From: Acidobacteriota bacterium
GTDB taxonomy: Bacteria > Acidobacteriota > Terriglobia > Terriglobales > SCQP01
Assembly (NCBI GenBank): GCA_021789895.1
Contig: JAJYIU010000021.1
Span: 30-64,029 of the forward strand
Reading direction: 5' to 3'
DNA: 64,000 nucleotides
Part shown: positions 15,993 to 36,300 of the stretch, piece after piece
Numbering within the stretch: position 1 is the first letter of the stretch
How the letters are laid out: each line of letters begins with the position of its first letter
Made by a program: the position numbers and the translations under genes
The notes under the pieces: generated by a model
What the model was told of the DNA's origin: nothing
Seen by the model: only the letters and a program-made list of their open reading frames with translations
The model's database searches: none

Positions 15993-16588
15993 GGCCGCTC
16001 CTCCGGCGTCGCTATCGCTTCTGTTTCCGTTTCCGCCAGCGCCGCACAGACCGCCTGGACGATCTGCACATACCCGGTGCAGCGGCAGAGATTGCCGCTC
16101 AACGCCTGCCGGATCGCCGCCGCATCGGGATGCGGCTGGGCCTGGAGCAGCGCCGCCGCGCTGACAATCATGCCGGGCGTGCAAAAACCGCATTGCGCCC
16201 CGCCAATCTCGCCGAATTTGAGCTGCAGCCGGCGCAGCCGCTCCTCCAGATGCAGGCCCTCGATGGTGGTGATCGGCAGGGCCTCGCCATCTTCGCCGGC
16301 GCAACTTGCGGCCAGCAGGGTGCAGCTCAGCACCGGGCGGCCCGCCACCAGCACCGTGCAGGCGCCGCAACTGGAGTCGTCGCAGCCGCGCTTGGCGCCG
16401 GTCAGGCCCAGCCGCCGGCGCAGGCAGTCGAGCAACAACTCGTTGGGCGCGGCGTGGACCCGGCAGGCGGCGCCGTTGACCAGCAGCCGCAGGCTGCGCG
16501 CGGGCGCCGCCACTGCGGAGGATGCGGCCGGCTGCGGCTGGCCGGCCGCGCATTCGTTACCGCTTTGCTTCAGCTCGATGGACTTCAT
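15989..16588 (-). CDS. Xanthine dehydrogenase family [2Fe-2S] (small) subunit
   Basis: GCDDSSCGACTVLV and CGFCTPGMI...NLCRCTGY are the two canonical 2Fe-2S cysteine clusters. Confidence 0.9.
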   Translation of the reverse strand: MKSIELKQSGNECAAGQPQPAASSAVAAPARSLRLLVNGAACRVHAAPNELLLDCLRRRLGLTGAKRGCDDSSCGACTVLVAGRPVLSCTLLAASCAGEDGEALPITTIEGLHLEERLRRLQLKFGEIGGAQCGFCTPGMIVSAAALLQAQPHPDAAAIRQALSGNLCRCTGYVQIVQAVCAALAETETEAIATPEERP

Positions 16589-16680
16589 CGCAGCAGCCCG
16601 TCATCCGCGCGGCATCGCGAGGCTACCAGAACACTAGCACAGGGGGCAACGCCGGCCCCGGTTCGCCCGCCCGCTGCGCT

Positions 16681-17811
16681 TTAACCCAGCCACTTGGCGC
16701 TCGCCGGCTTGGGCTCGATCCATTCGCCGTCGGCGGATAGCATTTGGTTGACCGCCGCCACGTCGGCCTCGGCCGGCAACACCGCCGCCCGGTGGCGCTC
16801 GTATTCTTCCGGCGCCAGCTTTTCGCCGGTGACGCTGTAGGGCTGGCGCGCGAACTCGCCGATCGAGCGGTTGAAGCGAAGGTCGGGCGCGTACAGGCGC
16901 GGCTCCTCCGGCTTCAGCAGCCGGTTCAGCGAATCAATCAGCCCCTGCACTTCCTCGCGGTAGAGCATCCGCGCCGCCTGGTTCAATTGCTCCAGGTCGG
17001 CCGCCTGCGGGTTCTGATGCTCGTCATAGCGCCCCTTCAGCCCCCAGACATAGGCCCATTGGGCGGAAGTCGAGTAGTCGGTGCCGAACAGATCGTAGGC
17101 GGTCGGAATCCATTTATTGAAATATTTCTGGATATAGACGGTGGGAATGCGCCCGCGCTGCACGATCCGTTTCAAGCCATCGTTGCCGGTGCCCAGGTGG
17201 AAGGATTCTTCCTTCAGCATCGGCACCATGCTCTCGGCCAGCGGCGCGAAACCGGAATGGCTGAGCATTTGGAGCTGGAATTTACCGTCCCGGTCAATGA
17301 ACTGGGTGTAGGTATAAAAATCAAGCCAGTTATCCACCCGCTCGTTGAACGAGCCCAGCAGCCGTTTTTGCTCGAAGGCGCGGCGCTCCAGCAGCTTTTG
17401 CGCCTCGATCCGCCCGGCATGGCCGAAATGGGTGATCAGCAGGTGGCACATCTGATAGCCGTGCCGCATCTCTTCCGCCATCACCCGGCTGAGCGCCTTG
17501 CGGTCGTAATCGCTGGGCGCTCCGGCAAACAGATTGCGCTGCTGCTCGACCGAGCCGAACTCGGTATCGCCCTGGTACACGATCAGATTGAGCAGCGCGT
17601 CTTTCGCCCGCTGATCTGGAATCTGCCGCACCGCGCGCCAGCGGGGGCGGCCGCGATAGGCGCCAAACTCGATTTCCGGGGTGTGCAGCGCGCCATATTT
17701 GGCCTCGAACTGGAATTGGCGGATCTCCGGCAGATCCACGCCAATTTCCCTTTGCCAGACGCGGAACAGGTCAATCCAGTCGTCGAAGGTGGCGATGCGG
17801 GTGGCAGACAT
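16681..17811 (-). CDS. BoxB-like di-iron oxygenase (benzoyl-CoA 2,3-epoxidase subunit B family), short form
   Basis: Blocks LIVYQGDTEFGSVEQQR, AEEMRHGYQM, IDRDGKFQLQML and MLKEESFHLGTGNDG match my recollection of BoxB (VTQGDTEPASVEQQR, EEGRH, DRDGKFQL, EEAHH). Both ExxH iron-ligand motifs are present. It is 376 aa versus about 470 aa for BoxB. Confidence 0.75.
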   Translation of the reverse strand: MSATRIATFDDWIDLFRVWQREIGVDLPEIRQFQFEAKYGALHTPEIEFGAYRGRPRWRAVRQIPDQRAKDALLNLIVYQGDTEFGSVEQQRNLFAGAPSDYDRKALSRVMAEEMRHGYQMCHLLITHFGHAGRIEAQKLLERRAFEQKRLLGSFNERVDNWLDFYTYTQFIDRDGKFQLQMLSHSGFAPLAESMVPMLKEESFHLGTGNDGLKRIVQRGRIPTVYIQKYFNKWIPTAYDLFGTDYSTSAQWAYVWGLKGRYDEHQNPQAADLEQLNQAARMLYREEVQGLIDSLNRLLKPEEPRLYAPDLRFNRSIGEFARQPYSVTGEKLAPEEYERHRAAVLPAEADVAAVNQMLSADGEWIEPKPASAKWLG

Positions 17812-21841: not shown

Positions 21842-23239
21842 ATGTTTGAAAGCGTCCCCACCCTGCTCGAGAATCTGGTTCTGGGCCGCAGTATCGAGCG
21901 TCGGCTGAATTTTGCCAAGCTCTTGCCACATTGGCTTTTAGCCAGAATTCAAGCCTCGGAATTCCAGCAAACCGTCTGCCGCGCCGGCGAGCATTCGAGC
22001 TACTATCGCCGGCGCTTCGCCGCGCAGGGAATCGAAACGCGGCGAGTTCGGCTGCCAGCCGATTTGGGCGATTTTTACACTACCGCGGCCGATCTGCGCG
22101 CGCTGCCGGTGGATGATTTTCTTTGCGCCCGCCCGCAGGCCGGTTTCGAAACCACCGGCACCACCGCCCGCAACAAGCGCGTTTATTTCTCCAACGAAGA
22201 GGTGCACGACATCGGCTTTGAAGGCGCGGTGGGGCTTTGGAACCTGGGCCTGCGCCCGGAAGACCGGGTGGTGGACGCTTTCGATTACGCCTTTTGGAAT
22301 GCCGGCATTACCCTGCTGCACTCTCTGAATGCCATCGGTTGTTTCCACGTGATCGCTTCCAAGCTGCCGCCGGAGGAGTTCTACGAGCGCGTGCGCGAAT
22401 ACCGTTTCAACGTGCTCATCGTGGATACCGCCTGGCTGGTCACTTTGACAGAAATCGCCGAGCGGCGCGGCGTTTGGCCGGTTAAGTTCATCCTTTCCGG
22501 CAGTGAAAACCTGGCCGAAGCCACCCGCGCCTGGATCGAGCGCGTCTGGGCGGCCAAAGTTTACCAGGCCTACGGGCAGACCGAGTCGCTCGGCGCCACC
22601 GGCATCGAATGTCCGGCGCAGCGCGGCTATCATTTGAACGAATTCAACTTTTTATTCGAGCTGCGCCAGCCGAATGCAGAGGGCTGGGGCGAATTGGTCT
22701 TCACCACCCTGACCCGCAAGGTCATGCCGCTGATCCGCTACCGCAGCAACGATATCACCCGCCTGCTCGACGATGATTGCGGCTGCCCGCTGGCCTGCAT
22801 GCGGAGGATTGACAAGATCGCCGGGCGGGCCGACGAAATCATCTCCTGCGGCATGGGCATGATCAGCCCCTGGATATTCGAAACCTGGCTCTCCGGCTGC
22901 CCCGGCCTCGCCGACGATTGGCAGGTGGCGGTCACCCAGCCTGGCGTGCGCGATCGCCTGCTGCTCCGCCTGGAAAGGTCGGCGGGCGCGCCTCCGGCCG
23001 GGGAGATCGAGGCCGAGCTGACCCGCCGCCTGGAGCAGCGCTTCCCTTATTACTATAAAAACTGGCGCATGGGCATGTACGAGATCGGCTTCGAGTTTCT
23101 GGAGCGTGGATCGCTCCGTCCCGCCGGGGTGCGGCGTAAATTGCGCCGCCTGCTGGATGAGCGCATTCCCACACCCGCCCGCCAGCCGCTCTCGGCCGCC
23201 GTGGAGACGCTAGGATCCGAGTTCCAGAGTCAAGACTGA
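21842..23239 (+). CDS. CapK/PaaK (coenzyme F390 synthetase-like) adenylate-forming ligase, paralog 1
   Basis: FYTTAADLRALP...GFETTGTTARNKRVYFS...YGQTESLG...RKVMPLIRYRSNDITR...GRADEII shows phenylacetate-CoA-ligase-family architecture. It is clearly paralogous to the gene at 32611..33960. The track start at 21836 is a TTG; I prefer the ATG at 21842. Confidence 0.8.
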   Translation: MFESVPTLLENLVLGRSIERRLNFAKLLPHWLLARIQASEFQQTVCRAGEHSSYYRRRFAAQGIETRRVRLPADLGDFYTTAADLRALPVDDFLCARPQAGFETTGTTARNKRVYFSNEEVHDIGFEGAVGLWNLGLRPEDRVVDAFDYAFWNAGITLLHSLNAIGCFHVIASKLPPEEFYERVREYRFNVLIVDTAWLVTLTEIAERRGVWPVKFILSGSENLAEATRAWIERVWAAKVYQAYGQTESLGATGIECPAQRGYHLNEFNFLFELRQPNAEGWGELVFTTLTRKVMPLIRYRSNDITRLLDDDCGCPLACMRRIDKIAGRADEIISCGMGMISPWIFETWLSGCPGLADDWQVAVTQPGVRDRLLLRLERSAGAPPAGEIEAELTRRLEQRFPYYYKNWRMGMYEIGFEFLERGSLRPAGVRRKLRRLLDERIPTPARQPLSAAVETLGSEFQSQD

Positions 23240-23456: not shown

Positions 23457-24749
23457 ATGCCCCTCAAAGCATCCGTATCCCGCGCCGAATCCAATGGCCG
23501 TTTGGGCGTGCTGTTGGCCGGCATGGGCGCAATCTCGACCACACTCATCGCCGGCATCGAAGCGATCAAACAAGGCGTGGGCCGGCCGCTGGGGTCGCTG
23601 AGCCAACTGGCGCTGGCGCCGGATATCGATCCGCGCCATCCGGTGGCGCTGAGCGATTATCTGCGCCTGGACCGCATCGAGAACCTGGTCTTCAGCGGCT
23701 GGGACATCAATCCCGGCACGGCTTACGACGCCGCCCGCCGCGCGGCGGTGATCGAGCCGTCGCTGCTGGAACAGCTCCGTCCCCAGCTCGAAGCCATCGA
23801 GCCGATGCCGGGCATCTACGATCCGCGCTATTTGCGGCGCGGGGAAGGCCGGCGGCTGAAACCGGAAACCAACCAGTACGAGCAGGCCGAAGCGCTGCGC
23901 CAGGACATTCGCGCCTTTCAGCAGCGGCATCAACTGCGGCAGGTGGTGGTGCTGTGGTGCGGCTCGACCGAGGTGTTTTCGACCCCCGGCCCGGCGCACC
24001 AGGGACAGCGCATCTTCGAAGCGGCGATGAAGGCCAACGATCCTTCCATCGCGCCCAGCATGCTGTATGCCTGGGCGGCGTTGCAGGAAGGCTGCGCCTT
24101 TGTCAATGCCACGCCCACGCTGACGGTGGATCTGCCGGTGATGATCGAGCTTTCGGAAGCGCACCGCGCGCCCATCTGCGGCAAGGATTTGAAAACCGGC
24201 CAGACCTGGCTGAAGACCGTGCTCGCGCCCGGCATCCGCCAGCGCATGCTCGGCGTCGCCGGCTGGTTCAGCATGAACATACTGGGCAACCAGGACGGCG
24301 CCGTGCTCGACGACCCGGCCGCATTTCGCAGCAAGGAAGAATCCAAGCTCTCGGCGCTGAACCACATTTTGCAGCCCGAACTCTATCCCGAGCTTTACGG
24401 CCATCTGTCGCATCAGGTCAAGATCAACTACTATCCCCCGCGCGGCGACAACAAGGAAAGCTGGGACACGATCGACCTGCTCGGCTGGCTGGGCTATCCG
24501 ATGCAGATCAAGGTGAATTTCCTCTGCCGCGACAGCATTCTGGCGGCGCCGCTGCTGCTCGATCTGGCGCTGTTTTCGGCGGCCGCGCAGCGCGCCGGCC
24601 GCGGTGGGGTGCAGGAATGGCTGGCTTTCTTCTTCAAGAGCCCGCAAGTGCGCGCCGGCCGCCCGGAACACGACCTTTCGGTGCAGTACCAGCATTTGCA
24701 GGCCGCCTGGAAAGAACTGGCGGAAGCCGCCGTCGGCGTGACCGCCTGA
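23457..24749 (+). CDS. ino1: myo-Inositol-1-phosphate (inositol-3-phosphate) synthase
   Basis: FSGWDIN, FVNATPT, SMNILGNQDG and RSKEESKLSAL correspond to the conserved MIPS blocks (GWDI, NGSPQNT, SYNHLGNNDG, SKxxSK). GGAGAG lies 9 nt upstream of the ATG at 23457. The longer track ORF start (23349) adds a non-homologous leader. Confidence 0.9.
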   Translation: MPLKASVSRAESNGRLGVLLAGMGAISTTLIAGIEAIKQGVGRPLGSLSQLALAPDIDPRHPVALSDYLRLDRIENLVFSGWDINPGTAYDAARRAAVIEPSLLEQLRPQLEAIEPMPGIYDPRYLRRGEGRRLKPETNQYEQAEALRQDIRAFQQRHQLRQVVVLWCGSTEVFSTPGPAHQGQRIFEAAMKANDPSIAPSMLYAWAALQEGCAFVNATPTLTVDLPVMIELSEAHRAPICGKDLKTGQTWLKTVLAPGIRQRMLGVAGWFSMNILGNQDGAVLDDPAAFRSKEESKLSALNHILQPELYPELYGHLSHQVKINYYPPRGDNKESWDTIDLLGWLGYPMQIKVNFLCRDSILAAPLLLDLALFSAAAQRAGRGGVQEWLAFFFKSPQVRAGRPEHDLSVQYQHLQAAWKELAEAAVGVTA

Positions 24750-24762
24750 TCGCCGGGGCAGG

Positions 24763-25572
24763 ATGGCGGCGGCAACGCCGCCCCGTGGAGCAACGAGTTT
24801 GACTCAGAAACCCCTCGCTGAACGTGTCGCCCTGGTCACCGGAGCGGCGCGCGGCATCGGCCGCGCGATCGCCCGCCGGCTGGCCGCCGACGGCGCCAGC
24901 GTGCTGATCAATTACGCCACCAGCCATGAGGCCGCCCAGGCCCTGGCGGAGGAGCTGCGCGGGCTGGGCGTGAAGGCTGAAGCCGTGGCCGCCGACGCCG
25001 CTTCCCCGGCCGGGGTGGCGGCGATGCTCAAGGCGATCGAGAGCGGCTTCGGCAACCGGCTCGACATTTACATCAACAATGCGATTGACGTGGCCGCATC
25101 CGGTCCGGCGCTGAAGATGCGCGCCGCGGGCTGGGAACATACCGTGGATACGAACTCCACGGCATTTCTCACGCTCGCCCAGCGCGCGGCCAAGCTGATG
25201 CAAGGGCGCGCGGGCCGCATCGTCACCGTATCTTCGCTCGGATCGCTCTACTACATTCCCAATTACGCCCCGATCGGCGTCGCCAAGGCCGCCGCCGAAG
25301 CGTTGACCCGTTATCTTGCGGTCGAGCTGGGGCCGCTGGGAATCAACGTGAACGCGGTCTCGGCCGGGCCGGTCGAGACCGATGCCTTGCATCTTTATCC
25401 CAATTACGAGCAGATGAAGGCAACCGCCGCCGCGATCTCGCCCGCGCGCCGCATGGGCATGCCGGAGGATATTGCCGCGGTGGTGGCGTTTCTCTGCTCC
25501 GATGCCGCCGCCTGGATCACCGGCCAGACCGTGATCGCCGACGGCGGGCTGTCTTTATTGAGCGTGCGCTAA
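24763..25572 (+). CDS. FabL-type enoyl-ACP reductase (SDR with Tyr-x6-Lys)
   Basis: VALVTGAARGIGRAIA (NAD(P) binding). SSLGSLYYIPNYAPIGVAKAAAEALTRYLAVEL closely resembles the B. subtilis FabL active-site region as I recall it, and carries Y-x6-K rather than the classical SDR YxxxK. Confidence 0.75.
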   Translation: MAAATPPRGATSLTQKPLAERVALVTGAARGIGRAIARRLAADGASVLINYATSHEAAQALAEELRGLGVKAEAVAADAASPAGVAAMLKAIESGFGNRLDIYINNAIDVAASGPALKMRAAGWEHTVDTNSTAFLTLAQRAAKLMQGRAGRIVTVSSLGSLYYIPNYAPIGVAKAAAEALTRYLAVELGPLGINVNAVSAGPVETDALHLYPNYEQMKATAAAISPARRMGMPEDIAAVVAFLCSDAAAWITGQTVIADGGLSLLSVR

Positions 25573-25597: not shown

Positions 25598-26110
25598 ATG
25601 AGTTCCATGACCAACAGCGCTGAAGAAGTGATGAAAATCCGGCAGACCGCCGACCGCGTGCTGGCGACGCGCGAAGACGAAATCGTCACCAAGGTGCGCC
25701 AGGCGGTAGCCGAGGTGCTGGGCCGCGAAGAGGAGGAGATTCAGCCCTCCGCCAGCCTGATCAAAGATCTCAATGCCGAGTCGCTCGACTTTCTGGACCT
25801 GCTCTTCCGGCTGGAGTCGGCCTTCGGCATTAAAATTCCGCGCGGCGGCATTCAGCGCGCCACCCAGGGCTCGCTGACCGACGCCGAGTTCCAGCAGAAC
25901 GGCATCCTGACGGAAGCCGCGCTCGACCGCCTGCGCATACTCATGCCCGAGGTGGACCCGGCGCGCTTGCAGCCGGGGCTGACCGTGCGCGACATTCCCA
26001 GCCTGTTCACCTCGATCACCTTCGCCCGCCTGGTCGCCTGGCGCATCGGCGAACAGCCCGCCGATGCCCCCAACGCGGCGGGGGCTGCCGCCGCCGAAAA
26101 CAAAGCCTGA
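25598..26110 (+). CDS. Acyl carrier protein, unusually long (170 aa)
   Basis: Phosphopantetheine attachment region LIKDLNAESLDFLDLLFRLE (DSL-type Ser). There are about 35 aa before and about 80 aa after the four-helix core. Confidence 0.8.
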   Translation: MSSMTNSAEEVMKIRQTADRVLATREDEIVTKVRQAVAEVLGREEEEIQPSASLIKDLNAESLDFLDLLFRLESAFGIKIPRGGIQRATQGSLTDAEFQQNGILTEAALDRLRILMPEVDPARLQPGLTVRDIPSLFTSITFARLVAWRIGEQPADAPNAAGAAAAENKA

Positions 26111-26124
26111 GAACTGGCCGCCGT

Positions 26125-26649
26125 ATGCGCTATCTGCTGTTGGACCGCATTCTGGAAATCGAAGCCGGCGCTTTCGCCGTGGGGGTGAAAACTCCCGCGA
26201 TGAGCGAAGATTACTTCGCCGACCACTTCCCCGGCTTTCCGGTCATGCCCGGGGTGCTGCTGGTGGAGGCGATGGCGCAGCTTTCCGGTCGCCTGCTCGC
26301 CTACACGGTGCTGGCCACCGAACGGCGGCAGGTGCTGCCGGTGCTGCTGACGGTGCAGAACGCCCGTTTCCGCCATTTCGTGCGCCCCGGCGACCGGGTG
26401 GTGCTGCGCAGCAAGCTGCTGGCGCTGAACGAGAATGCCGGCCGCTGCCAGGTTATCGCCCAGGTCGGGGAACAGACCGTGGCCACGGCGGAAATGATGC
26501 TCGGCTTCGACGCTGCCGGGGAAAGCGGAGTCCTTCCCGACGCCATTCGCGAGCATCTGTTCAGTTGGGCCAACCGGGTGAATCGCGCCCTGCTGGAAGG
26601 CGCCAAGCTGACCCCGCCGCTGGAGGCGCTGGAGGCGGCGGCATGCTGA
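26125..26649 (+). CDS. fabZ: 3-Hydroxyacyl-ACP dehydratase (FabZ/FabA hotdog family)
   Basis: DHFPGFPVMPGVLLVEAMAQ contains the catalytic His and Glu of FabZ. A C-terminal extension of about 35 aa is present. Confidence 0.85.
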   Translation: MRYLLLDRILEIEAGAFAVGVKTPAMSEDYFADHFPGFPVMPGVLLVEAMAQLSGRLLAYTVLATERRQVLPVLLTVQNARFRHFVRPGDRVVLRSKLLALNENAGRCQVIAQVGEQTVATAEMMLGFDAAGESGVLPDAIREHLFSWANRVNRALLEGAKLTPPLEALEAAAC

Positions 26650-27992
26650 GCCACTCCTCGACCAACGGGCGAACTCCCGGATCGCCCCGCCGGGTGGTGG
26701 TGACCGGCATCGGCGCGGTGACGCCGCTCGGTCTCAATGCCGCCGATACCTGGGCCGGAATTCGCGCCAACCGCTGCGGGGTCGGACCGATCACCGTCTT
26801 CGACGCCTCCCGTTTCGAAACCCGCATCGCCGCCGAAGTTCACGGCTTCGATTTCGCCAAACTGGCAGCGCCTCCCGGCGTCGCCGAAGTGCTCGACCGG
26901 AAAAATTCGTTCGGCTACGCCGCCGCGCTCGAGGCCATGGCTGACGCCGGACTGGCGGATGCCGGCGCATTGAGCCGGGGCAAATTCGCCGAAGGCGGCT
27001 ACAGTTTCGATCCGCTCCGCTTCGGGCTGTCGCTCGGCACCGAAGGCCGCCGCGACAGCCTGCTGCCCGAGCTTGCCGCGCGCAAACTGCTGCCGGCGAA
27101 TGCCGCCGAACGCAAACAACGCCTGGCGGAAGTTCCGCGCAGCGAGTACCTGCGCTACTCCCCCTACGGGCTGGCCTTTGCTTTGAGCACGGCCTTCGAT
27201 CTGCGCGGCCCTTCCAGCACGATTTCCACCGCCTGCACTTCCAGCTCGCAGGCGCTGGGCTATGCCTTGCGGCGCATCCGTTCCGGCGACGCCGATATGA
27301 TGCTGGCCGGCGGGGCGGAAAGCCTGATGGAACCCACGCAGGTTGCCGGCTTCATCCTGCTCGGCGCGCTCTCGAAGCGGAATGACGATCCGCAGCGCGC
27401 TTCGCGGCCCTTCGACGCCGAGCGCGACGGTTTCGTGCTCGCCGAAGGGGCGGCGATGTTGGTGCTGGAAGACGCCTGGCATGCCTATCGCCGCGGCGCG
27501 CGCATTTACGCCGAGCTGGCCGGCTTTGGCGCCTCGATCAACTCCTACCGCCTCACCGACTCGCCGCCCGACGGCGAAGGCCCGATGCTGGCAATGCAGG
27601 CCGCGCTCGCCGATGCCGGCGTGCGCCCCGAGGAGGTGGACTATATCAACGCCCACGGCACCTCGACGCTGCAAAACGACGCCAGCGAAACCACCGCGAT
27701 CAAGCGTTGTTTCGGCCCGCAGGCCCAAGCCATTCCGGTGAGCTCCACCAAGTCCATGACCGGACACATGGTGAACGCCGCCGGCGCGATCGAGGCGATT
27801 CTTTCGCTGCTCGCCATGCGCGACGGTTATCTACCCCCTACCATCAATTACGAGCGCGCCGACCCGGCCTGCGACCTCGACTACATCCCCAACCGCGGGC
27901 GCGCGGCGCAGGTGAAGGTTGCCGTTTCCAATTCCTTCGGTTTCGGCGGCTCCAACGGAAGCGTGGTGCTTCGTGCTTACCCCGAAAAATAA
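26643..27992 (+). CDS. Beta-ketoacyl-ACP synthase I/II type (KS1, intact Cys-His-His)
   Basis: The internal ATG at 26643 (MLSHSS...RRVVVTGIGAVTPLG) overlaps the fabZ stop by 7 nt. ISTACTSSSQA (Cys), NAHGTSTLQND (His), SMTGHMVNAAG (His). Confidence 0.9.
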   Translation: MLSHSSTNGRTPGSPRRVVVTGIGAVTPLGLNAADTWAGIRANRCGVGPITVFDASRFETRIAAEVHGFDFAKLAAPPGVAEVLDRKNSFGYAAALEAMADAGLADAGALSRGKFAEGGYSFDPLRFGLSLGTEGRRDSLLPELAARKLLPANAAERKQRLAEVPRSEYLRYSPYGLAFALSTAFDLRGPSSTISTACTSSSQALGYALRRIRSGDADMMLAGGAESLMEPTQVAGFILLGALSKRNDDPQRASRPFDAERDGFVLAEGAAMLVLEDAWHAYRRGARIYAELAGFGASINSYRLTDSPPDGEGPMLAMQAALADAGVRPEEVDYINAHGTSTLQNDASETTAIKRCFGPQAQAIPVSSTKSMTGHMVNAAGAIEAILSLLAMRDGYLPPTINYERADPACDLDYIPNRGRAAQVKVAVSNSFGFGGSNGSVVLRAYPEK

Positions 27993-29439
27993 CGGACGCC
28001 GCGTCGTGGTGACCGGCCTGGGCGCCATCTCGCCGCTGGGCTGGGGCGCGGAAGAGTTCTGGAATAGCCTCACCCAGGGGCGCAGCGGGATCGGCGCGAC
28101 CGCCCATCTCGATCTGGCTCCCTTCCGCAGCCGGGTAGCCGGCGCGGTGCACGGCTTCCAGGCGCGCAAGCATCTTTCCGACCCGAAGACGCTCAAGCTG
28201 ATGACCCGCTCGGTGAGCCTGGGCGTGGCCGCCGCCGAAGCCGCCATCGCCGACTCCGGCTGGAAACCCGGCGCCGACGATCCCGCCCGGATCGGCTGCT
28301 TTGTCGGCTCTCCCGGTCATGCCGGCGAGCGGGATGAGCTGCTGCCGGCGCTGGCGCTGGCCTGGCGAGAGGGCCGGCTCGACCTGGGCACCTATGGCGA
28401 ACAAGGCATTGCCGCCACCAATCCGCTCTGGCTGCTGAAAAGCCTGGCCAACATCGTGTTGTATTTCGCCAGCCTCAAGCTGGGCTCGCACGGCCCCAAC
28501 GCCAACATCTGCATGTCGGGGGCGGGCGGGGTGATGGCGGTAGGCGAAGCGGCGGCGGAAATCCTCGCCGGCCGCGCCGATCTGGCGCTGGCGGGCGGCT
28601 ATGAATCGCTGCTGGACGACGAGCGCCTGGAAAGCTTCGAGCGCTCCGGCCTGCTGTGCCTGGAAGCCGGCGACGGGCCCGCCGCCAGCCGCCCCTTCGA
28701 CCGCGGGCGGCAAGGGTTCGTCCCCGGGGAAGGCGCGGGCTTTCTGATGCTGGAAGAGCGCCAGCACGCCCAGGCCCGCGGCGCCCGCATTTACACCGAG
28801 TTGCTCGGCTACGGGCAGGCCGCACCCGGGCGCGAATGCCAGCCTTTCCGCGCCCACGAAACTCCAGCCGCGTTCGCGCATGCCGCCGCCGCCGCGCTCG
28901 CCGAAGCGCGGCTCAGCGCCTGGCAGCTCGACGCCATCTTCGCGCACGGCCTGGGCACGCCCGCCAGCGACCGCGCCGAAGCCGAAGCGCTGCTGCAACT
29001 GCTGGGCGCCCGCGCCGCCTACATCCCGATTACGGCGGTCAAGTCGCTGACCGGCAATCTGGCGGCGGCTTCCGGCCCGCTCGAAATCATCGCCGCGGCC
29101 GGCTGCTTTGCCCCGCGTTCCATGCCGGTGCCGGCGATTGCCAACCTGGACGATCCCGATCCGGTCGGCCTCGATTACGTGCGCCGGTCGCCGCGGCCGC
29201 TGGCCGGCGCCACCGAATACGCCTCCCGGCCCCTGCCGGCGGGCGCCGCAACCGGCCTGGCGCAGACGGCGCCGGAGCGCGGCGAATTCGCGCGCCGCAT
29301 TCTGATCAACTCGGCCAGCTTGACCGGCGTTGCCGCCTGCCTGGTGCTGGGCGAAAGCCCCGCCGCGGATGCCGGGTTGCCAGCGGTCGAGGCTGCCATC
29401 AGCGTGCCTGCCCTACAGCCCGCCTGCGAGGCCAAATGA
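27973..29439 (+). CDS. Divergent beta-ketoacyl synthase-like protein (KS2; Cys-His-Asn, insertions and C-terminal tail)
   Basis: RRVVVTGLGAISPLG; NICMSGAGGVMA (Cys kept); AHGLGTPASD (His kept); SLTGNLAAASG (second His replaced by Asn). There is an extra Pro/Ala-rich insertion before ILINSASLTG and about 40 aa of tail. Start is either the GTG at 27973 (20-nt overlap with KS1) or the ATG at 27919. Confidence 0.75.
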   Translation: MLTPKNNGRRVVVTGLGAISPLGWGAEEFWNSLTQGRSGIGATAHLDLAPFRSRVAGAVHGFQARKHLSDPKTLKLMTRSVSLGVAAAEAAIADSGWKPGADDPARIGCFVGSPGHAGERDELLPALALAWREGRLDLGTYGEQGIAATNPLWLLKSLANIVLYFASLKLGSHGPNANICMSGAGGVMAVGEAAAEILAGRADLALAGGYESLLDDERLESFERSGLLCLEAGDGPAASRPFDRGRQGFVPGEGAGFLMLEERQHAQARGARIYTELLGYGQAAPGRECQPFRAHETPAAFAHAAAAALAEARLSAWQLDAIFAHGLGTPASDRAEAEALLQLLGARAAYIPITAVKSLTGNLAAASGPLEIIAAAGCFAPRSMPVPAIANLDDPDPVGLDYVRRSPRPLAGATEYASRPLPAGAATGLAQTAPERGEFARRILINSASLTGVAACLVLGESPAADAGLPAVEAAISVPALQPACEAK

Positions 29440-30221
29440 ATCCGCCCTCCCCACCTGCGTCAACCACGGGCAGCAGCCTCCGCCTCGACGGCCGCACCGC
29501 GCTGGTGACCGGCGCCGGGCGCGGCATCGGCCGCGCCATCGCCCTGCGGCTGGCGCGCGAGGGCGCGCGCGTGGCGGTGAACTACAACCGCAGCCGCAAC
29601 GATGCCGCAGCCGTGGTCGCGGCCATCCGCGCCGAAGGCGGGGAAGCCGAGGCCTTTGCCGCCGATGTCAGCCAATCCGCCGCCGCCCAGCAATTGATCG
29701 AAGCCGTCGAGCGCGGCTTCGGCAAGGTCGACATCCTGGTCAACAACGCCGGCGTGATCCGCGATCAGTTGCTGATCAGCATGGAAGACGACGATTGGCG
29801 GGCGGTCATGAGCGCCAATCTCGACAGCGTTTTTTACTGCTGCCGCGCGGCGGTGCGCTTCATGCTCCGCCGCCGCTACGGCCGCATCATCAACCTGTCG
29901 TCGGTCGCCGGCACCCGGCCGGGCAAGGGTCAGGCCAACTACGCCGCCTCCAAAGGCGGCATCAACGCTTTCACCAAAGCGCTGGCGGCGGAGCTGGCGG
30001 GACGCAATATCACCGTCAACGCCATCGCCCCGGGCGTGATCGAGACCGAAATGTCGCAGGCGATTCGCGACGCCGCGGCCGAGGAAATCCTGGCGCACAT
30101 CGGGCTCAAGCGTTTCGGCCGGGTGGAGGAGATTGCCGGCGTCGCCGCTTTCCTGGCCTCCGCCGATGCCGGCTATATCACCGGCGAGGTCTTGCACGTG
30201 GACGGAGGCTTGCGCGGCTGA
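29436..30221 (+). CDS. fabG: 3-Oxoacyl-ACP reductase
   Basis: The ATG at 29436 overlaps the KS2 stop (ATGA). ALVTGAGRGIGRAIA, NNAG, SSVAG...YAASKGG (YxxxK), HVDGG. Confidence 0.9.
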   Translation: MNPPSPPASTTGSSLRLDGRTALVTGAGRGIGRAIALRLAREGARVAVNYNRSRNDAAAVVAAIRAEGGEAEAFAADVSQSAAAQQLIEAVERGFGKVDILVNNAGVIRDQLLISMEDDDWRAVMSANLDSVFYCCRAAVRFMLRRRYGRIINLSSVAGTRPGKGQANYAASKGGINAFTKALAAELAGRNITVNAIAPGVIETEMSQAIRDAAAEEILAHIGLKRFGRVEEIAGVAAFLASADAGYITGEVLHVDGGLRG

Positions 30222-31246
30222 TGAAAGCGTTGCGCGATGTCGTGGTCACCGGCCAGGGCTGGCTGCTGCCGCCGGGGATGACGCCGGCCAGTTTCGAAAC
30301 CCCGCTGGCGTCCGATGCCGGGCCGGCGGCGCGCCAGTTGCACGGCTTCGATGCCGCCGCCTACGTGGGAGACCCGAAAGTGCTGCGCGCCATGAATCGC
30401 GTTTTCCAGATCGCCGCCGCGGCTTCGGTGCTGGCGATGCGGCCGGCCGGCTTCATTGCCCCCGCCGATCTGGAACGCGCAGGGCTGGTTCCCGAGCGCT
30501 GCGGCATCGCGACCGCGATGACGGAAATCTCGCCGGTGGACGCCAACCTGATCGACGCCATCCGGGACAGGAGCGCCGGTGAGAAGTTCGACCTGGGCGC
30601 TTTTGGCGAGTCGGCGCGCCATCGCCTGCATCCTTTCCGCCGGCTGATGCTGCTGGCTAACATGGCGGCGGCGCACAGTTCCCTGCTGTTCGGGCTGCAG
30701 GGGCCCAGCTTTACCTTCAACTCCGGCACCAGTTCCGGATTGCAGGCGATTCGCGAGGCCTGCTGGACGATCGCCAGCGGACGCGCCGACCTGATGCTGT
30801 GCGAGGCGGCCGATTCACCCCAAAACTCGCTGCATTGCCATCCGGTGACCGAAGCCGCCGCCGCGCTGGTATTGGAAGCGGAAGCAGTAGCCCGTCGCCG
30901 TGGCGCCCGCATCCTGGCCTGTCTGCGACCCGGCCCGGAGCAGCCCTGTCCTTCGCATCCCCGCGTGGGGGAGCCGTCCAGCGAAGCGGCATTTTGTCAT
31001 CACGCGCCGGCTGCCGCCGGGCTGCTCGCCGTCCTGGCGCGGCTGCCTGACGGCCGCGCGGCAGCGGAACGCCAGCAGCCGGGCTCTTTGCGGGAGACGG
31101 CGCCCGGCTACCCGCCGGAGGCGAGCGCGGCGCAGGCGCGGCCGGCAGTTTTATCGAGCTTGGAAATCGTGCCCTGCGCGCCGGACCCAGCCGCGCTGAC
31201 GGGGCCCTCGGCTGCGCTGGCCGCTGAAAAAGTTGGTACGCGATGA
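30221..31246 (+). CDS. Truncated KS-beta/chain-length-factor-like protein (no active-site Cys)
   Basis: The ATG at 30221 shares one base with the fabG stop (TGATG). The N-terminus VVVTGQGWLLPPG is KS-like. The active-site position reads FNSGTSSGLQA (Cys replaced by Thr). There is no HGTGT or GHxxxAAG block, and the C-terminal third is Pro/Ala-rich. Confidence 0.65.
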   Translation: MKALRDVVVTGQGWLLPPGMTPASFETPLASDAGPAARQLHGFDAAAYVGDPKVLRAMNRVFQIAAAASVLAMRPAGFIAPADLERAGLVPERCGIATAMTEISPVDANLIDAIRDRSAGEKFDLGAFGESARHRLHPFRRLMLLANMAAAHSSLLFGLQGPSFTFNSGTSSGLQAIREACWTIASGRADLMLCEAADSPQNSLHCHPVTEAAAALVLEAEAVARRRGARILACLRPGPEQPCPSHPRVGEPSSEAAFCHHAPAAAGLLAVLARLPDGRAAAERQQPGSLRETAPGYPPEASAAQARPAVLSSLEIVPCAPDPAALTGPSAALAAEKVGTR

Positions 31247-32472
31247 ACGACGTTTGGATTACCGGCATGGGCATCGTCTCGCCGCTGGGCGCGGGATTGG
31301 AGGCGCACCGCGCCGCACTCGCCGCCTCCCAATGCGGCATCCGCTATATACACCAGTTCCCGACCGATCGCTTTCCGGTGCGGATTGCCGGCGAGATTCC
31401 CGACCCGGAGCTGCCGCATGCCGCCGCCGGGCGGACCAGCATTCTGCTGGAGCGGGCGCTGGATCAGGCATTTGAGGATGCCGGCCTGGACCTCGCCAGC
31501 GCCAGCCCGCGGCGCGCCTTGAGCTGCGCCTTGGGCAAGCAGACGGTGCGGCTGGAAACCCTGGCGGCGGCCTTGTCCGCGCCCGAATCTGATCCCGCCG
31601 CCGAGCCGCCACGCTGGCCGCGCGAATTCGTTTGTGATTGGGAACGGCGCGAGCCGGCGAGCGAATTAGACCGCCTTGCCCGCCGGGCGGGCGCGCTGGG
31701 CCCGGCTTATTGCTGCTATACCGCCTGCGCCTCCGGCAACGACGCGCTTGGCATGGGCAAGCGGCTGATCGAGCGCGGCGAGGCGGACGTGGTGGTGGCC
31801 GCCGCCGCCGACTGCCAGGTGAATCCGCTCAGCCTGTTGGAATTCGATCTGCTCGACGCCCTCGCTCAAGGCGAGCCGGAGCGTGCCTGCCGGCCCTTTG
31901 ACCGGCAGCGGACCGGCTTCGTGGTGGGCGAAGGTGCGGCGGTGCTGGTGCTCGAATCCGCCCCGCATGCGCGCCGCCGCCGCGCCCGCGCGCGCGGCTA
32001 CTTGAGCGGCTACGGCAGCGCGCTCGATTGTTTTGGCCTGACCAAGTGCCACCCGCAGGGGCGTGGCGCCGCAATGGCGATCGCCGCCGCCCTGGCCGAC
32101 GCCGGCCGCCGCCCCGAAGAAGTCGGCTACATCAACGCCCATGGCACCGGCACCGTGCTCAACGACCGCGCCGAATCCGCCGCGATTTACCACGTCTGGG
32201 GCGCCGGCGCCCGGCGCCTGCCGGTCAGTTCGACCAAATCGATGACCGGCCATCTGATTGCCGCCGCCTCCGCTGTCGAGGCGGTGCTGACGCTGCTGGC
32301 GCTCGAAATGCAACTGCTGCCGGCCACGCTCAACTACGCCACCCCGGATCCGGAATGCGATCTGGCGGTGGTCGCCACACCCCGTTCCGCCGAGTTCCGG
32401 GTGGCGATGTCGAATGGCTTTGGCTTTGGCGGACAAAATTCCGCGCTGGTGCTGGAGGCGCCATTGCCATGA
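31243..32472 (+). CDS. Beta-ketoacyl-ACP synthase I/II type (KS4, intact Cys-His-His)
   Basis: The ATG at 31243 overlaps the preceding stop (ATGA). YTACASGNDA, NAHGTGTVLND, SMTGHLIAAAS, NGFGFGGQNSALVLE. Confidence 0.9.
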   Translation: MNDVWITGMGIVSPLGAGLEAHRAALAASQCGIRYIHQFPTDRFPVRIAGEIPDPELPHAAAGRTSILLERALDQAFEDAGLDLASASPRRALSCALGKQTVRLETLAAALSAPESDPAAEPPRWPREFVCDWERREPASELDRLARRAGALGPAYCCYTACASGNDALGMGKRLIERGEADVVVAAAADCQVNPLSLLEFDLLDALAQGEPERACRPFDRQRTGFVVGEGAAVLVLESAPHARRRRARARGYLSGYGSALDCFGLTKCHPQGRGAAMAIAAALADAGRRPEEVGYINAHGTGTVLNDRAESAAIYHVWGAGARRLPVSSTKSMTGHLIAAASAVEAVLTLLALEMQLLPATLNYATPDPECDLAVVATPRSAEFRVAMSNGFGFGGQNSALVLEAPLP

Positions 32473-32495
32473 AAAGCGGCACGGCCGCTTTTACA
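32472..32495 (+). terminator. Candidate intrinsic terminator after KS4
   Basis: AAAAGCGGC-ACG-GCCGCTTTT forms a perfect 9-bp stem starting at the last base of the stop codon. The short T run is part of the stem. Confidence 0.45.
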
Positions 32496-32610
32496 TTCAG
32501 GCGCGGGAACCGGAACGAACCCCGCGCTGCGGCCTGCCACGCGCTGCGCGGGTACCCGTTCCCGGAGATGAACGCCTGCCCGATTCGGCCGTTGGGAAAA
32601 ATAAGATTAT

Positions 32611-33960
32611 ATGTCCACCCTGCTTGAACCCACCTTCGATTGGCTCGATCGCAACCTGCTGCGCAGCCCGGCGGCGCGGCTGTGGATCGCCCGGCACCTG
32701 ACGCCCGGGTTCATCTCGCTCCTGCAGGCGAGCAAGTTCCGCCGGCTGGTGCGCTATGCCGCGCGGCATTCCAAGTTTTATCGCGAAGCTTTCCGCCAGC
32801 ATGGAATCGACCCGAAGCGCGTCCGCTGCCATGCCGACCTGGGCAATTTCTTTACCACCCCCGAGGACCTGAAGACGCATCCGATCGAGGATTTTCTTTG
32901 TGCTCCCGGGGAGTGCGGTTTCGAGACCACCGGCACCAGCATGGGGATCAACAAGCGGGTTTATTTCTCTTACCAGGAGATGTTCGACTATGGGCGCGAC
33001 GGTGCCGCCGGGCTGTATAACCTCGGGATGCGCCGCGGAGACGTGGTGCTTGACGGCTTCGATTATTCATTCTGGAACGCCCCCTTCACCGCCTATTACT
33101 CGCTGATGCCGCTGCGCTGCCTGCACGTGATCGGCGGCTTCATCGAACCCCAGGAACTGTACGACCGGATGAAGGTGTACCGTCCCAACGTGCTGCTGGG
33201 CGTGCCCACGCACATGGTGCGGGTGACCGAGGTGGCGGAAAAGAACGGCGCCTGGCCGATGAAGTTCATGCTGCTGGGCGGCGAAAATCTCAGCGAGCGC
33301 ACCCGCAAGTATCTCGAATCGGTTTGGCGCGGCGCGCGGGTTTACCTCAGTTACGGCCAGACCGAAAACTTCGGCATCACCGGAATCGAATGTCCCGAAA
33401 AGGGCGGCTATCACGTCAGCGGCCTCAGCCTGGTATCGGAAATCATCGAGCCGGACGAGAATGGTTACGGCGAGATGGCATACTCCACGCTCAATCGCAA
33501 GGTGATGCCGCTGATCCGCTACCGCTCCGCCGACATTACCCGCTGGGCGGACAACGGGACGTGCACTTGCGGGCTGAAAGTCATGCCGCGGCTGGACAAA
33601 GTGGTCGGCCGCACGGACGAGCTGATCAACTGCTCGATGGGCAATATCAGCCCCTACTGGTTCGAGGAAATTCTGCGCGACATCACCGCCGTGAGCGGCG
33701 ACTGGCAAGTGATCGTGCGCCGCGGCGACCGCGACGATGCCATCGAAATGAATCTGGAGCCGGTCAACGGCGCCAACCCGCAGGCGATCCGGGAGCAGGT
33801 GCTGGCCAACATCCAGGCGCGCTTCCCCGATTGCTGGCGTTATTACACCAAGGGCTTTTTCGCGCTCGACATCAAGTTTCATCCCCGGCATAGCCTGGCC
33901 GGGGATGGCCGCAAGCTGCGCCGGCTGATTGACGCCCGGCGCGACGCCTGGAACAAATAA
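32611..33960 (+). CDS. CapK/PaaK (coenzyme F390 synthetase-like) adenylate-forming ligase, paralog 2
   Basis: FFTTPEDLKTHP...GFETTGTSMGINKRVYFS...YGQTENFG...RKVMPLIRYRSADITR...GRTDELI. It is collinear with the 21842..23239 protein over its whole length. Confidence 0.8.
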   Translation: MSTLLEPTFDWLDRNLLRSPAARLWIARHLTPGFISLLQASKFRRLVRYAARHSKFYREAFRQHGIDPKRVRCHADLGNFFTTPEDLKTHPIEDFLCAPGECGFETTGTSMGINKRVYFSYQEMFDYGRDGAAGLYNLGMRRGDVVLDGFDYSFWNAPFTAYYSLMPLRCLHVIGGFIEPQELYDRMKVYRPNVLLGVPTHMVRVTEVAEKNGAWPMKFMLLGGENLSERTRKYLESVWRGARVYLSYGQTENFGITGIECPEKGGYHVSGLSLVSEIIEPDENGYGEMAYSTLNRKVMPLIRYRSADITRWADNGTCTCGLKVMPRLDKVVGRTDELINCSMGNISPYWFEEILRDITAVSGDWQVIVRRGDRDDAIEMNLEPVNGANPQAIREQVLANIQARFPDCWRYYTKGFFALDIKFHPRHSLAGDGRKLRRLIDARRDAWNK

Positions 33961-33994
33961 GCAGCCGAACGCAATGATTGATGGAGTGAATGAT

Positions 33995-35320
33995 ATGTCC
34001 CAACTAGCCTTAAACGGCGGCGCCCGGAGCGTTCCCGCCCAGCCCGGAAAAATCGCCTGGCCGATCGTCACCCCGGAGGACAAGGCCGCGGTGCAGCGGG
34101 TGCTGGATCGCGGGGTCCTGTGGGCCATGACCACGCTGACCGGGTTGAACTGCCCCGAACAGGATGCGCTGGAGCGCGAATTCGCGGAGTTCCTCGGCGT
34201 GCCGTACGCCCTCGCCGTCAACGGCGGCACCGCCGGGCTGCACATGGCGCTGGTGGCCGCCGGGGTGGAAGCCGGGGATGAAGTCATCACCTCCGCCTTT
34301 TCTTTTCTCGCCACTCCCGCCGCCATCCTGCACGCCGGCGCCATCCCCGTCTTCGTGGATGTTGACCCGCGCACCTGGAACATCGATCCGCAACGCATCG
34401 CGGAGAAAATCACTCCCCGCACCCGCGCCATCCTGGCGGTGGACATCCACGGCTTGTGCGCAGATTGGGATGCCATTCTCGAACTGGCCCGCCGCCACAA
34501 CCTGCTGGTGCTCGAGGACGCCTGCCAGGCCCCCGGCGCTTCCTATCGCGGGTGCCCGGCGGGCAGCTTCGGCCGCGCCGCCGGCTTTTCGGTGAATGGC
34601 ACCAAAAACTTCGCCGTCGGCGAAGGCGGCTTCATGGTCACCTCCGACGCTGAAATTCTCGCCCGCGGCGCCTGGCTCAAGCAGGTGGGCGAGACTCTGC
34701 CCGCCGACAACCCCGCCATGCGCCAGCAGCATCTGCTGGCCTGGAATTACCGGGTGCAGGAAATGCCCTGCGCTTTTGCCCGCAGCCAGCTCCGCCGCCT
34801 GGCCGCGGTCAACCAAACCGCGCGCCGCAATGCCGCTATCGTGGACGGCTACCTGCGGGAAACGCCCGGCCTGCGGGGGCCATATATTCCCGACGGCTGC
34901 GTTTCGGTCTATCACAAATACCGCATCACGCTGGTTCCGGAAGAATTAGACACGCCGCTGCGCGGGGTCGAGCTGCGCGACGCCTTCATGGCCGCGCTCG
35001 GCGCCGAGGGCGTGGACGTTGACCTTTGGGGCACCGCTCCTCTGGCGGCGCATCCAATGATCCGGGCGCGGCATGGCTTCGGCCACGGCTTCCCGTGGCG
35101 TCTGGCCGGCGCGCCGGAAAGCTATACCTACCGCGCCGAAGACTATCCGGTCACGCTGGAGATGTTCGCCAACAGTTTCTGCCTGACCAACGACGAGTTT
35201 CCGATTTACGCGCAACCCGAGCCGGTCATGCATGCCTACGGGCGGGCGCTGCAAAAGGTAGCGCAAAACGCGCGCGAGCTGGCGCAGGCGAAAGTGGCCG
35301 CGTGGCAGACGGCAACGTAA
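33995..35320 (+). CDS. DegT/DnrJ/EryC1/StrS family PLP-dependent aminotransferase
   Basis: ALAVNGGTAGLHMALVAAGV...EVITSAFSF.ATP...FVDVD...LLVLEDACQAPGA...GFSVNGTKNF (PLP Lys). GGAG lies upstream of the ATG at 33995; an ATG at 33974 is also possible. Confidence 0.85.
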   Translation: MSQLALNGGARSVPAQPGKIAWPIVTPEDKAAVQRVLDRGVLWAMTTLTGLNCPEQDALEREFAEFLGVPYALAVNGGTAGLHMALVAAGVEAGDEVITSAFSFLATPAAILHAGAIPVFVDVDPRTWNIDPQRIAEKITPRTRAILAVDIHGLCADWDAILELARRHNLLVLEDACQAPGASYRGCPAGSFGRAAGFSVNGTKNFAVGEGGFMVTSDAEILARGAWLKQVGETLPADNPAMRQQHLLAWNYRVQEMPCAFARSQLRRLAAVNQTARRNAAIVDGYLRETPGLRGPYIPDGCVSVYHKYRITLVPEELDTPLRGVELRDAFMAALGAEGVDVDLWGTAPLAAHPMIRARHGFGHGFPWRLAGAPESYTYRAEDYPVTLEMFANSFCLTNDEFPIYAQPEPVMHAYGRALQKVAQNARELAQAKVAAWQTAT

Positions 35321-35329
35321 AACGGCGCG

Positions 35330-36055
35330 CTAATGGGCCAGGCTGAATCTCACCCGGATCAGGGTTTCGACTTCGACCGGCATGCCGTTGAGCCGTGTGG
35401 GAGCATAACGCCAGGCGCGCACCGCCGCAATTGCCGCCTGAGCCAGAAGACCCGGACCGCTGACCAGCGCCAACTGCCGGATGCGGCCATGGCGTCCGAT
35501 GCGGGCGCGCAACACCACCGTGCCTTGTATGCGAGCCTGCCGGGCGAGGAAAGGATAGCGCGGCGGCGGGCAATCCAGGCACCGGGCCGCCTCCACATCG
35601 CCGCCGATGCGGTACACCGGCGCGGACAGCGCCGGTGGTTCGGGCGCCGGCGGGGCAGCGGCGCGGGGCAGGCTGTACCATGGCGCAAGGCCGGTGCTAG
35701 CCCCGTTCCGGCTGCCAACAATCACCCCCGTGGCTTGCGGCGCGGGCGGCAAAGCGGCGGCAGCCGGCATGGCGACATGTTGCGGAATCCAATGCGGCGT
35801 CTGGGGCAGGGGGGCAACCGGCGCGGAGCGATGAAACATCCGGGGGGCCGGTGCCGGCGCAGCCGCAGTCGGAGGTGGAGCGAGCGGCGCGATTTGCGCT
35901 GTCATCCGCACGAGCGGCAGCGTATGGGTTCCGATCAGCGGCAGCAGCAACAGTGCGCCGGCTGCCGCCAATTGCACTCCCAGCGAGATTAAAAAGCTCA
36001 GGGGCTTCGAACCCCATCCGCAGCGGCTTTTCAGCCAGATGCTTGTTTCGAACAT
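35330..36055 (-). CDS. tonB: TonB family energy transducer
   Basis: One N-terminal TM helix, a Pro/Ala-rich spacer, and the C-terminal TonB domain (PPPRYPFLARQARIQGTVVLRARIGRHGRIRQLALVSG...AVRAWRYAPTRLNGMPVEV). Start at the ATG at 36055 with GGGAGG upstream. Confidence 0.85.
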   Translation of the reverse strand: MFETSIWLKSRCGWGSKPLSFLISLGVQLAAAGALLLLPLIGTHTLPLVRMTAQIAPLAPPPTAAAPAPAPRMFHRSAPVAPLPQTPHWIPQHVAMPAAAALPPAPQATGVIVGSRNGASTGLAPWYSLPRAAAPPAPEPPALSAPVYRIGGDVEAARCLDCPPPRYPFLARQARIQGTVVLRARIGRHGRIRQLALVSGPGLLAQAAIAAVRAWRYAPTRLNGMPVEVETLIRVRFSLAH

Positions 36056-36300
36056 AGGCGCCTCCCAAGCCAATTGCCGCTGCACTGAAATAGACACCGG
36101 CGGGCGGAAATTGTTTCTTAACTGCTCTCTGCCGTCAGGCGTTTGGTGGCCCGCGGGGACCGCCGCAGGGGTAATAACGCAACCCCTAGGAAATTGCGTC
36201 AGCGGGAGACCGGCGGCCCCTTATTTGCTTGCCCCGGCGGGGGCAATGATTTAGGCTGAGGCCGGGCGCCGGGCACCGGGGAGCCGCCGGCGGGAATGCG

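Follow-up and report, generated by a model that had tools for sequence, protein, structure and literature searches.

A ligase and aminotransferase gene pair of Acidobacteriota and its proposed place in N-acyl-aminocyclitol formation

Described systems and the acidobacterial gene pair

To our knowledge, nearly all known examples of aminocyclitol chemistry concern actinomycete antibiotics and rhizopine. The aminocyclitol of hygromycin A is amide-linked to an acid, and the 2-deoxystreptamine enzymes start from the product of a dehydroquinate synthase-like cyclase, not from that of a myo-inositol-1-phosphate synthase (MIPS). A MIPS (Hyg18), a phosphatase (Hyg25), a myo-inositol dehydrogenase (Hyg17) and an aminotransferase (Hyg8) were proposed to compose the aminocyclitol branch of hygromycin A (PMC10949010). 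Fic25 and Ser5 are aminotransferases of amino-group-carrier-protein (AmCP) pathways (ficellomycin DADH), and their substrate is linear 6-oxo-5,7-dihydroxyheptanoate carried by AmCP (PMC11726168). The present study deals with two adjacent genes, coding for a PaaK-like ligase (hereafter ligase-2) and for an aminotransferase of the DegT/DnrJ/EryC1 family (hereafter DegT), in a 64,000-nucleotide stretch of DNA from an Acidobacteriota bacterium (assembly GCA_021789895.1, contig JAJYIU010000021.1, positions 30 to 64,029). This whole stretch, hereafter the window, belongs to contig C69 of an assembly of 3.75 Mb with a completeness of 95.5%. Its GC content is about 67%, and its closest proteins carry the label Terriglobales. 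The pair consists of the following features.

32611..33960, + strand: ligase-2, a PaaK-like adenylating enzyme of the ANL type, 449 aa (PF00501, AMP-binding_C_2)
33983..33986, + strand: ribosome-binding site GGAG, 8 nt 5' of the DegT start codon
33995..35320, + strand: pyridoxal phosphate (PLP)-dependent aminotransferase of the DegT/DnrJ/EryC1 family, 441 aa, long Fic25-like form (PF01041)

The identities of the genes, their catalytic motifs, their order and the conservation of this order were directly established. On balance, we lean towards reading the pair as the last part of a pathway to an N-acyl-aminocyclitol, conserved among acidobacteria, in which the amine is formed and coupled. The part of this reading that concerns the substrate class of DegT, an inosose, appears rather probable; the part that makes ligase-2 the amide former, which is suggested by gene order, stands at about even chances.

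We infer the substrates, the order of the steps and the part of the ligase in amide formation as follows. MIPS would make inositol phosphate, from which an inositol monophosphatase would release myo-inositol. A zinc dehydrogenase of the IolM family, encoded in trans in the window's genome (G000:C70:13655-14824), would oxidise the ring to an inosose, and DegT would transaminate this ketone to an inosamine by means of the PLP bound to K204. Ligase-2 would then adenylate an acid delivered by the neighbouring machine of ketosynthases (KS), ketoreductases (KR), dehydratase (DH) and acyl carrier protein (ACP), and transfer it to the ring amine. The predicted product is an N-acyl-aminocyclitol, with an amide between a fatty chain and an amino-inositol.

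The likeness to the Streptomyces hygromycin A branch thus lies in the proposed succession of MIPS, phosphatase, dehydrogenase and DegT-type aminotransferase, followed by N-acylation of the ring amine. The two systems differ in several respects. The dehydrogenase is a Gfo/Idh/MocA protein (PF01408) in the case of Hyg17, whereas the acidobacterial one is a zinc-dependent alcohol dehydrogenase (Zn-ADH) of the IolM family. Unlike in hygromycin A, the acyl source would be a type II machine with four KS resembling fatty acid and polyketide synthases (FAS/PKS), a PaaK-like ligase is the candidate for coupling, the host belongs to the Acidobacteriota, and the dehydrogenase and phosphatase genes of the window's genome are located outside the cluster.

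Genomic partners of the pair

One genome per species was scanned, and proteins with 53% identity or more were considered as DegT orthologues. The 33 loci obtained originated from acidobacterial metagenome-assembled genomes (MAGs), except for one MAG labelled Betaproteobacteria. In all loci having an upstream flank (31/31), the gene immediately preceding that of the DegT orthologue encoded a PaaK-like ligase. These loci displayed two architectures. Those of the Terriglobales type (DegT identities of 64-89%) were colinear with the window and had no cyclitol-related gene after DegT. In those of the Vicinamibacteria type (53-58%), the genes for the ligase, DegT, a Zn-ADH and an inositol monophosphatase (IMPase) overlapped or nearly abutted, and the ligase-DegT unit was divergent from an operon coding for MIPS, KR, ACP, a metallo-beta-lactamase-fold (MBL) protein, DH, two KS, KR and two further KS. 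The full order of ligase, DegT, Zn-ADH and IMPase was recorded in seven Vicinamibacteria-type loci; an eighth (L056) had the ADH (47%) and no IMPase match. In the compact clusters L003/L047, the complete gene set fitted into about 20 kb. No nucleotidyltransferase, 4,6-dehydratase or glycosyltransferase gene was present in any of the cluster loci examined.

The locus of the MAG labelled Betaproteobacteria (L043, identical to L010; JBLMXQ010000019.1) encoded cluster proteins 77-79% identical to the acidobacterial ones and nested among them in the tree. Either the MAG was wrongly binned or labelled, or the cluster was recently transferred.

The Zn-ADH of the Vicinamibacteria type passed the cut-off of the NCBIfam equivalog IolM (scyllo-inosose 3-dehydrogenase, NF041097) with 477.6 bits versus 450, and its best match in the PDB was 3ip1. 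Its orthologue on contig C70 of the window's genome was a reciprocal best hit, 49-51% identical, and also lay above the cut-off (463.6 bits). The original prediction had stated that the block lacks a dedicated inositol dehydrogenase and that the Gfo/Idh/MocA genes of the window are more than 10 kb away. The latter genes occurred only near 4.9 kb and 11.5 kb of the window, and the former statement held for the block itself, where no dehydrogenase or phosphatase gene was found 3' of DegT; it did not hold for the genome, in which the seemingly missing dehydrogenase is relocated rather than absent. The IMPase of this genome is probably the single family member encoded on contig C48.

The distribution of DegT and ADH was recorded in 201 genomes of the order, the window's own included. 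DegT occurred in 26/27 genomes of the window's family and in 0/173 of the sister family, and ADH in 25/27 and 1/173, respectively, the single match in the sister family being only 40% identical. In one genus of the window's family, both genes were found 11-25 kb apart on the same contig. As this common phyletic pattern shows, dehydrogenase and cluster travel together; the pattern may reflect one gain, since the genomes with DegT and ADH are kin.

The C70 dehydrogenase gene is part of a satellite locus (G000:C70, about 13652-17050; L008:8653-12053, - strand) coding for an MBL-fold hydrolase, a class-I/II aminotransferase and the IolM-like Zn-dehydrogenase. The MBL protein was 36% identical to that of the Vicinamibacteria-type clusters and its gene belonged to the same minus-strand run as the ADH gene, the class-I/II aminotransferase gene lying between them. 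This locus looks like a set of cluster genes that moved away. Genes for a histidine kinase and a response regulator were observed upstream of it.

Further evidence was provided by more distant loci. A tree was built from 54 DegT relatives, and one of its clades, with an SH-aLRT value of 100, united the ligase-linked DegTs, a sister group linked to AAC(3), a Myxococcota GH3 operon and the DegTs of two further loci (L057 and L060). Members of this clade adjoined MIPS, an IolM-like ADH or Gfo/Idh/MocA protein, and IMPase in at least four different architectures. The sister group (L049:3005-7702, L050, L051:9989-15568 and L052; DegT identities of 43-46%) came from Aerophobetes, Clostridia and Bipolaricaulota MAGs. 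Genes for an AAC(3)-type N-acetyltransferase and a Gfo/Idh/MocA protein directly followed DegT in 4/4 of these loci, and MIPS was found within about 0.4 kb of DegT in 2/4. In L051, which was annotated in full, a second DegT and a PfkB kinase came next and an ATP-binding cassette (ABC) sugar transporter was encoded upstream. These loci may represent an N-acetylated diaminocyclitol pathway outside actinomycetes. A Myxococcales MAG (L054:7273-12506) displayed an operon composed of genes for a GH3-family acyl-acid amido synthetase, MIPS, DegT and an AAA_28 P-loop protein, which seems to be an independent version of the association of an adenylating amide former with an amino-inositol. No MIPS gene was seen within the flanks of L057 and L060; in L060, a Gfo/Idh/MocA gene was directly 3' of DegT.

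A last DegT locus (L098:7040-13052) comprised genes for a patatin-like lipase, a ligase 47% identical to ligase-2, a Gfo/Idh/MocA protein, a DegT 44% identical to that of the window, and MIPS. No KS or ACP gene was found at this locus; the ligase-aminocyclitol module does exist without an assembly line. Overall, the outgroup DegTs encoded beside MIPS were 40-46% identical to the window's DegT, and this MIPS linkage recurred across several architectures, always with an N-acylating enzyme beside the aminotransferase (an AAC(3)-type acetyltransferase, a GH3 amido synthetase or a related ligase).

More distantly related ligases (45-49% identity) were also found in two loci (L097:4-9290 and L099:5438-13870) with ACP, KS, DH or MBL genes, where a class-III aminotransferase and a HAD phosphatase took the place of DegT and MIPS. 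The class-III aminotransferase gene abutted the ligase gene in one of them and lay about 3 kb downstream in the other. L099 also encoded an MGDG-synthase-like glycosyltransferase. Since these ligase relatives have a class-III aminotransferase instead of DegT, the pairing of ligase with aminotransferase persists when the family of the latter changes. What the ligase constantly has as a partner is an amine-making enzyme, and this is our main argument for inferring that the ligase acylates an amine.

Closest relatives of the two enzymes and alternative roles

As announced by the original prediction, DegT follows ligase-2 after 34 nt, its start codon being the ATG at 33995. A longer ORF opening with TTG at 33929 was considered and found to be unsupported, since homologues start at the methionine of 33995. 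The protein matched PF01041 with 267.6 bits (gathering threshold 19.8). The PLP lysine expected in GFSVNGTKNF is K204 (codon 34604-34606) and, together with D175 and F104, it aligned with Lys211, Asp182 and Phe111, the PLP residues of Ser5 (PMC11726168). These three residues were invariant in 11 DegT homologues.

The closest solved match of DegT was Fic25 (8GYH/8GYI/8GYJ; E 2e-75), in a full-length alignment of residues 1-430 with residues 1-424 that included the C-terminal region lacking in sugar aminotransferases. Solved relatives were ranked by HMMER scores of a profile, built from 11 family members, against PDB chains. Fic25 scored 387 bits, Ser5 286, the scyllo-inositol transaminase 7b0d 252, GDP-perosamine synthase 249, WbpE 217 and the 2-deoxy-scyllo-inosose enzymes about 210. 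As judged from these scores, DegT is neither of the NDP-hexose type nor of the StsC/BtrS type, and its nearest characterised relatives are not inosose aminotransferases, 7b0d coming third after Fic25 and Ser5. Enzymes of the StsC/BtrS type (7b0d, 5w70, 2c7t) do share with DegT the Pfam family and the proposed substrate class, a cyclitol ring ketone, and differ by their lower scores. Kinship to this type, which the original prediction wished to see compared, gave way to kinship to Fic25 and Ser5; the associated route from inositol through inosose to inosamine was supported in silico by the gene context of IolM-like ADH, IMPase and MIPS.

The likeness to Fic25 and Ser5 (8Y96-8Y98), i.e. the long form of about 440 aa, the common C-terminal region and the PLP residues, also suggests another role. 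DegT might aminate a keto-acyl chain on the cluster's ACP and give an amino fatty acid, inositol entering the product in some other way. The full-length extent of the Fic25 match and the unusual length of the ACP (170 aa) are in keeping with this role, as is the use of carrier-bound substrates by Fic25 and probably Ser5 (PMC11726168). Yet, Fic25 and Ser5 depend on an AmCP, whereas no LysW-like AmCP gene was found in the window and the only match in the genome, on contig C66, stayed under the cut-off (35.8 versus 53.2 bits). The genomic partners of DegT are cyclitol enzymes instead: members of its clade occur beside MIPS and an inositol dehydrogenase without ACP or KS, and the tight coupling of DegT with ADH and IMPase points to a free cyclitol. 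Moreover, the likeness fits either reading, because the carbons on both sides of the Fic25 ketone are hydroxylated, as they are in an inosose. We regard amination of an ACP-bound chain as improbable.

A third role for DegT, that of an ordinary NDP-ketosugar aminotransferase making an amino sugar for a lipid or the cell envelope, is suggested by automatic annotations of its homologues ('perosamine synthetase' or 'dTDP-4-amino-4,6-dideoxygalactose transaminase') and by the place of GDP-perosamine synthase among its better PDB matches. However, the perosamine synthase alignment was partial (residues 59-271 or 59-314 only) and all NCBIfam sugar-nucleotide equivalogs stayed far under their cut-offs (e.g. 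PseC, 189.6 versus 423.5; ArnB, 165.8 versus 631), so that the clustering with NDP-4-keto-6-deoxyhexose aminotransferases, named by the original prediction as a refutation of its reading, was not observed. The set of sugar-nucleotide genes that cluster loci lack (see above) and the existence of a separate paralogue also count against this role, which appears very improbable. The paralogue in question (G000:C50:3739-4791, a 385-aa frame) is more canonical, with 365 bits to PF01041, and is probably the true sugar aminotransferase of the genome.

Ligase-2 was identified as a second CapK/PaaK-like ligase, in line with the first reading of the DNA. It matched AMP-binding PF00501 (8.8e-11) as well as AMP-binding_C_2, and its best solved relatives were PaaK structures (E 1e-29), NatL2 (6siw) and AjiA1 (6wuq) giving weaker PDB matches. 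Its motifs comprised a variant P-loop (FETTGT..KRVYFS), YGQTE, YRSxDIT, GRxDE and a C-terminal RKLRRLxDxR containing K435. The ANL core motifs, the C-terminal lysine included, were invariant across seven aligned ligases and aligned with those of PaaK. A short ANL architecture and the core motifs are common to ligase-2 and to PaaK, NatL2, AjiA1 and BagE, whereas the P-loop reads ETTGT..K in ligase-2 and SSGTTG.P in the PaaK group. Unlike PaaK, ligase-2 always adjoins an aminotransferase and has no paa genes nearby. It did not reach the PaaK equivalog TIGR02155 (94.3 bits, cut-off 646.3); its scores were 139 bits to the DVU_1553 family (cut-off 300) and 103 bits to the flexirubin enzyme FlxY. 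Some PaaK-like enzymes make ester or amide bonds straight from the adenylate.

Two paralogues of this ligase family occur in the window's family and a single one in Vicinamibacteria-type genomes. The latter was 50% identical to ligase-2 and 52-53% to ligase-1, the paralogue encoded at the other end of the block, and the ligase tree was a trichotomy of these three lineages.

The role of ligase-2 could be conceived otherwise, with DegT acting on an inosose as proposed above: ligase-2 would be a CoA ligase or a loader of starter acids onto the ACP, as proposed for FlxY, and coupling would be left to another enzyme or to ligase-1. Its best named relatives (PaaK, the DVU_1553 family, FlxY) are indeed CoA ligases, two paralogues give room for a division of labour, and the cluster encodes no FabH-type starter enzyme, which is compatible with a loader. 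Against this, the sole ligase of the Vicinamibacteria type is co-operonic with DegT, ADH and IMPase and not with the KS and ACP genes. A related ligase stands beside MIPS, DegT and Gfo/Idh/MocA without any KS or ACP (L098), unrelated N-acylating enzymes occupy the same place in the outgroups, and no acyltransferase or other coupling enzyme besides the ligases is encoded in the cluster. A CoA ligase or loader is therefore held to be the less likely function, without being as doubtful as the two other roles considered for DegT.

Several points weigh against the N-acyl-aminocyclitol pathway that we favour. What supports it is comparative genomics rather than biochemistry. The solved enzymes closest to DegT by sequence, Fic25 and Ser5, act or are thought to act on carrier-bound linear ketones, and by the same profile scores the scyllo-inositol transaminase 7b0d is only level with GDP-perosamine synthase. 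As a rule, ligases of the PaaK type are CoA ligases, and activation of starter acids is assumed for those resembling FlxY. With two ligases in the window's family and a trichotomy in the tree, either one may do the coupling. Dehydrogenase and phosphatase are unlinked to the cluster in the window's genome. Finally, the exact ketone is uncertain because IolM of Thermotoga maritima, a catabolic enzyme of its inositol pathway, oxidises an inosose rather than inositol. The cluster enzyme and its C70 orthologue resemble IolM in passing the equivalog cut-off, and differ from it in that the cluster gene shares its operon with genes for a biosynthetic aminotransferase and a phosphatase; for this reason the substrate of the Zn-ADH may be inositol itself or an inosamine.

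The surrounding gene block and its meaning

Ligase-2 and DegT terminate a co-directional block on the + strand, which opens with ligase-1 and ends where a convergent gene is encountered. Its other genes and the sequence elements preceding ligase-2 are as follows.

21842..23239, + strand: ligase-1, paralogue of ligase-2 (46-47% identity), first gene of the block
23457..24749, + strand: cluster copy of MIPS (23349/23457-24749)
24763..25572, + strand: short-chain dehydrogenase/reductase (SDR) ketoreductase
25598..26110, + strand: acyl carrier protein, 170 aa
26125..26649, + strand: FabA-like dehydratase
26643..29439, + strand: KS1 and KS2, first ketosynthase pair (start codons approximate)
29436..30221, + strand: second SDR ketoreductase (start approximate)
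30221..32472, + strand: second pair, a KS-like protein and KS4 (KS4, 31243-32472)
about 32469..32496, + strand: hairpin adjoining the KS4 stop codon, with a stem of 9 bp (AAAAGCGGC/GCCGCTTTT) and the loop ACG (from sequence and fold)
32473..32610, + strand: intergenic spacer of 138 nt
35330..36097, - strand: TonB-like gene, convergent, 3' boundary of the block

MIPS was located 8-9 kb upstream of the ligase-2/DegT pair, in agreement with the distance of 9 kb given beforehand. Since a second MIPS gene exists in the same genome (G000:C75:54308-54646), that of the window is an additional one, dedicated to the cluster. At the 3' end, an ORF on the + strand (35333-35992) was considered as an additional operon gene or a dehydrogenase remnant and rejected: its translation is Arg-rich nonsense and the real gene is the TonB-like one on the minus strand.

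The KS4 stop codon (TGA at 32470-32472) is followed by the spacer of 138 nt and by the hairpin that the original prediction had placed at 32472-32495, where a 9-bp stem indeed folds. The proposal that this hairpin bounds a sub-operon fared less well. A consensus scan gave it no terminator score and detected no promoter of sigma-70-like type within the spacer, the spacer folded no better than shuffled sequences (z -1.36), and the sister species L018 (DegT 89% identical) displayed a 35-nt gap devoid of the hairpin, which appears specific to the window's genome. For these reasons, the hairpin speaks less strongly for a separate transcription unit than its appearance suggests, and the idea that it is a conserved boundary of the operon was rejected; it may act as a terminator or attenuator of low strength. 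An AT-rich stretch, GGAAAAATAAGATTAT (32595-32610), immediately precedes the ligase-2 ATG in this 67%-GC genome.

In the literature searched, no description of inosamine or aminocyclitol lipids in Acidobacteria, or of such a cluster, was found. The four-step aminocyclitol logic is here wired to a fatty-acid/polyene assembly line and a PaaK-like ligase, in abundant uncultured soil acidobacteria, and the cluster is fixed in the whole family of the window (26/27 genomes sampled). The comparison is also of use for annotation, the DegT clade being now labelled 'perosamine synthetase' or 'dTDP-sugar transaminase'.

More broadly, and tentatively, ligases with the ETTGT P-loop might be dedicated amide synthetases that join acids from private ACP/KS systems to amines made next door, amino-inositols in the case of DegT and others in the case of class-III aminotransferases. 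Their products might be undescribed N-acyl-aminocyclitol lipids or pigments, widespread in uncultured soil Acidobacteriota (one Terriglobales family together with lineages of the Vicinamibacteria type). If an N-acyl-inosamine is indeed formed, it would represent a new type of head group for a lipid or pigment, and the ligase family would offer a new means of making amide bonds.

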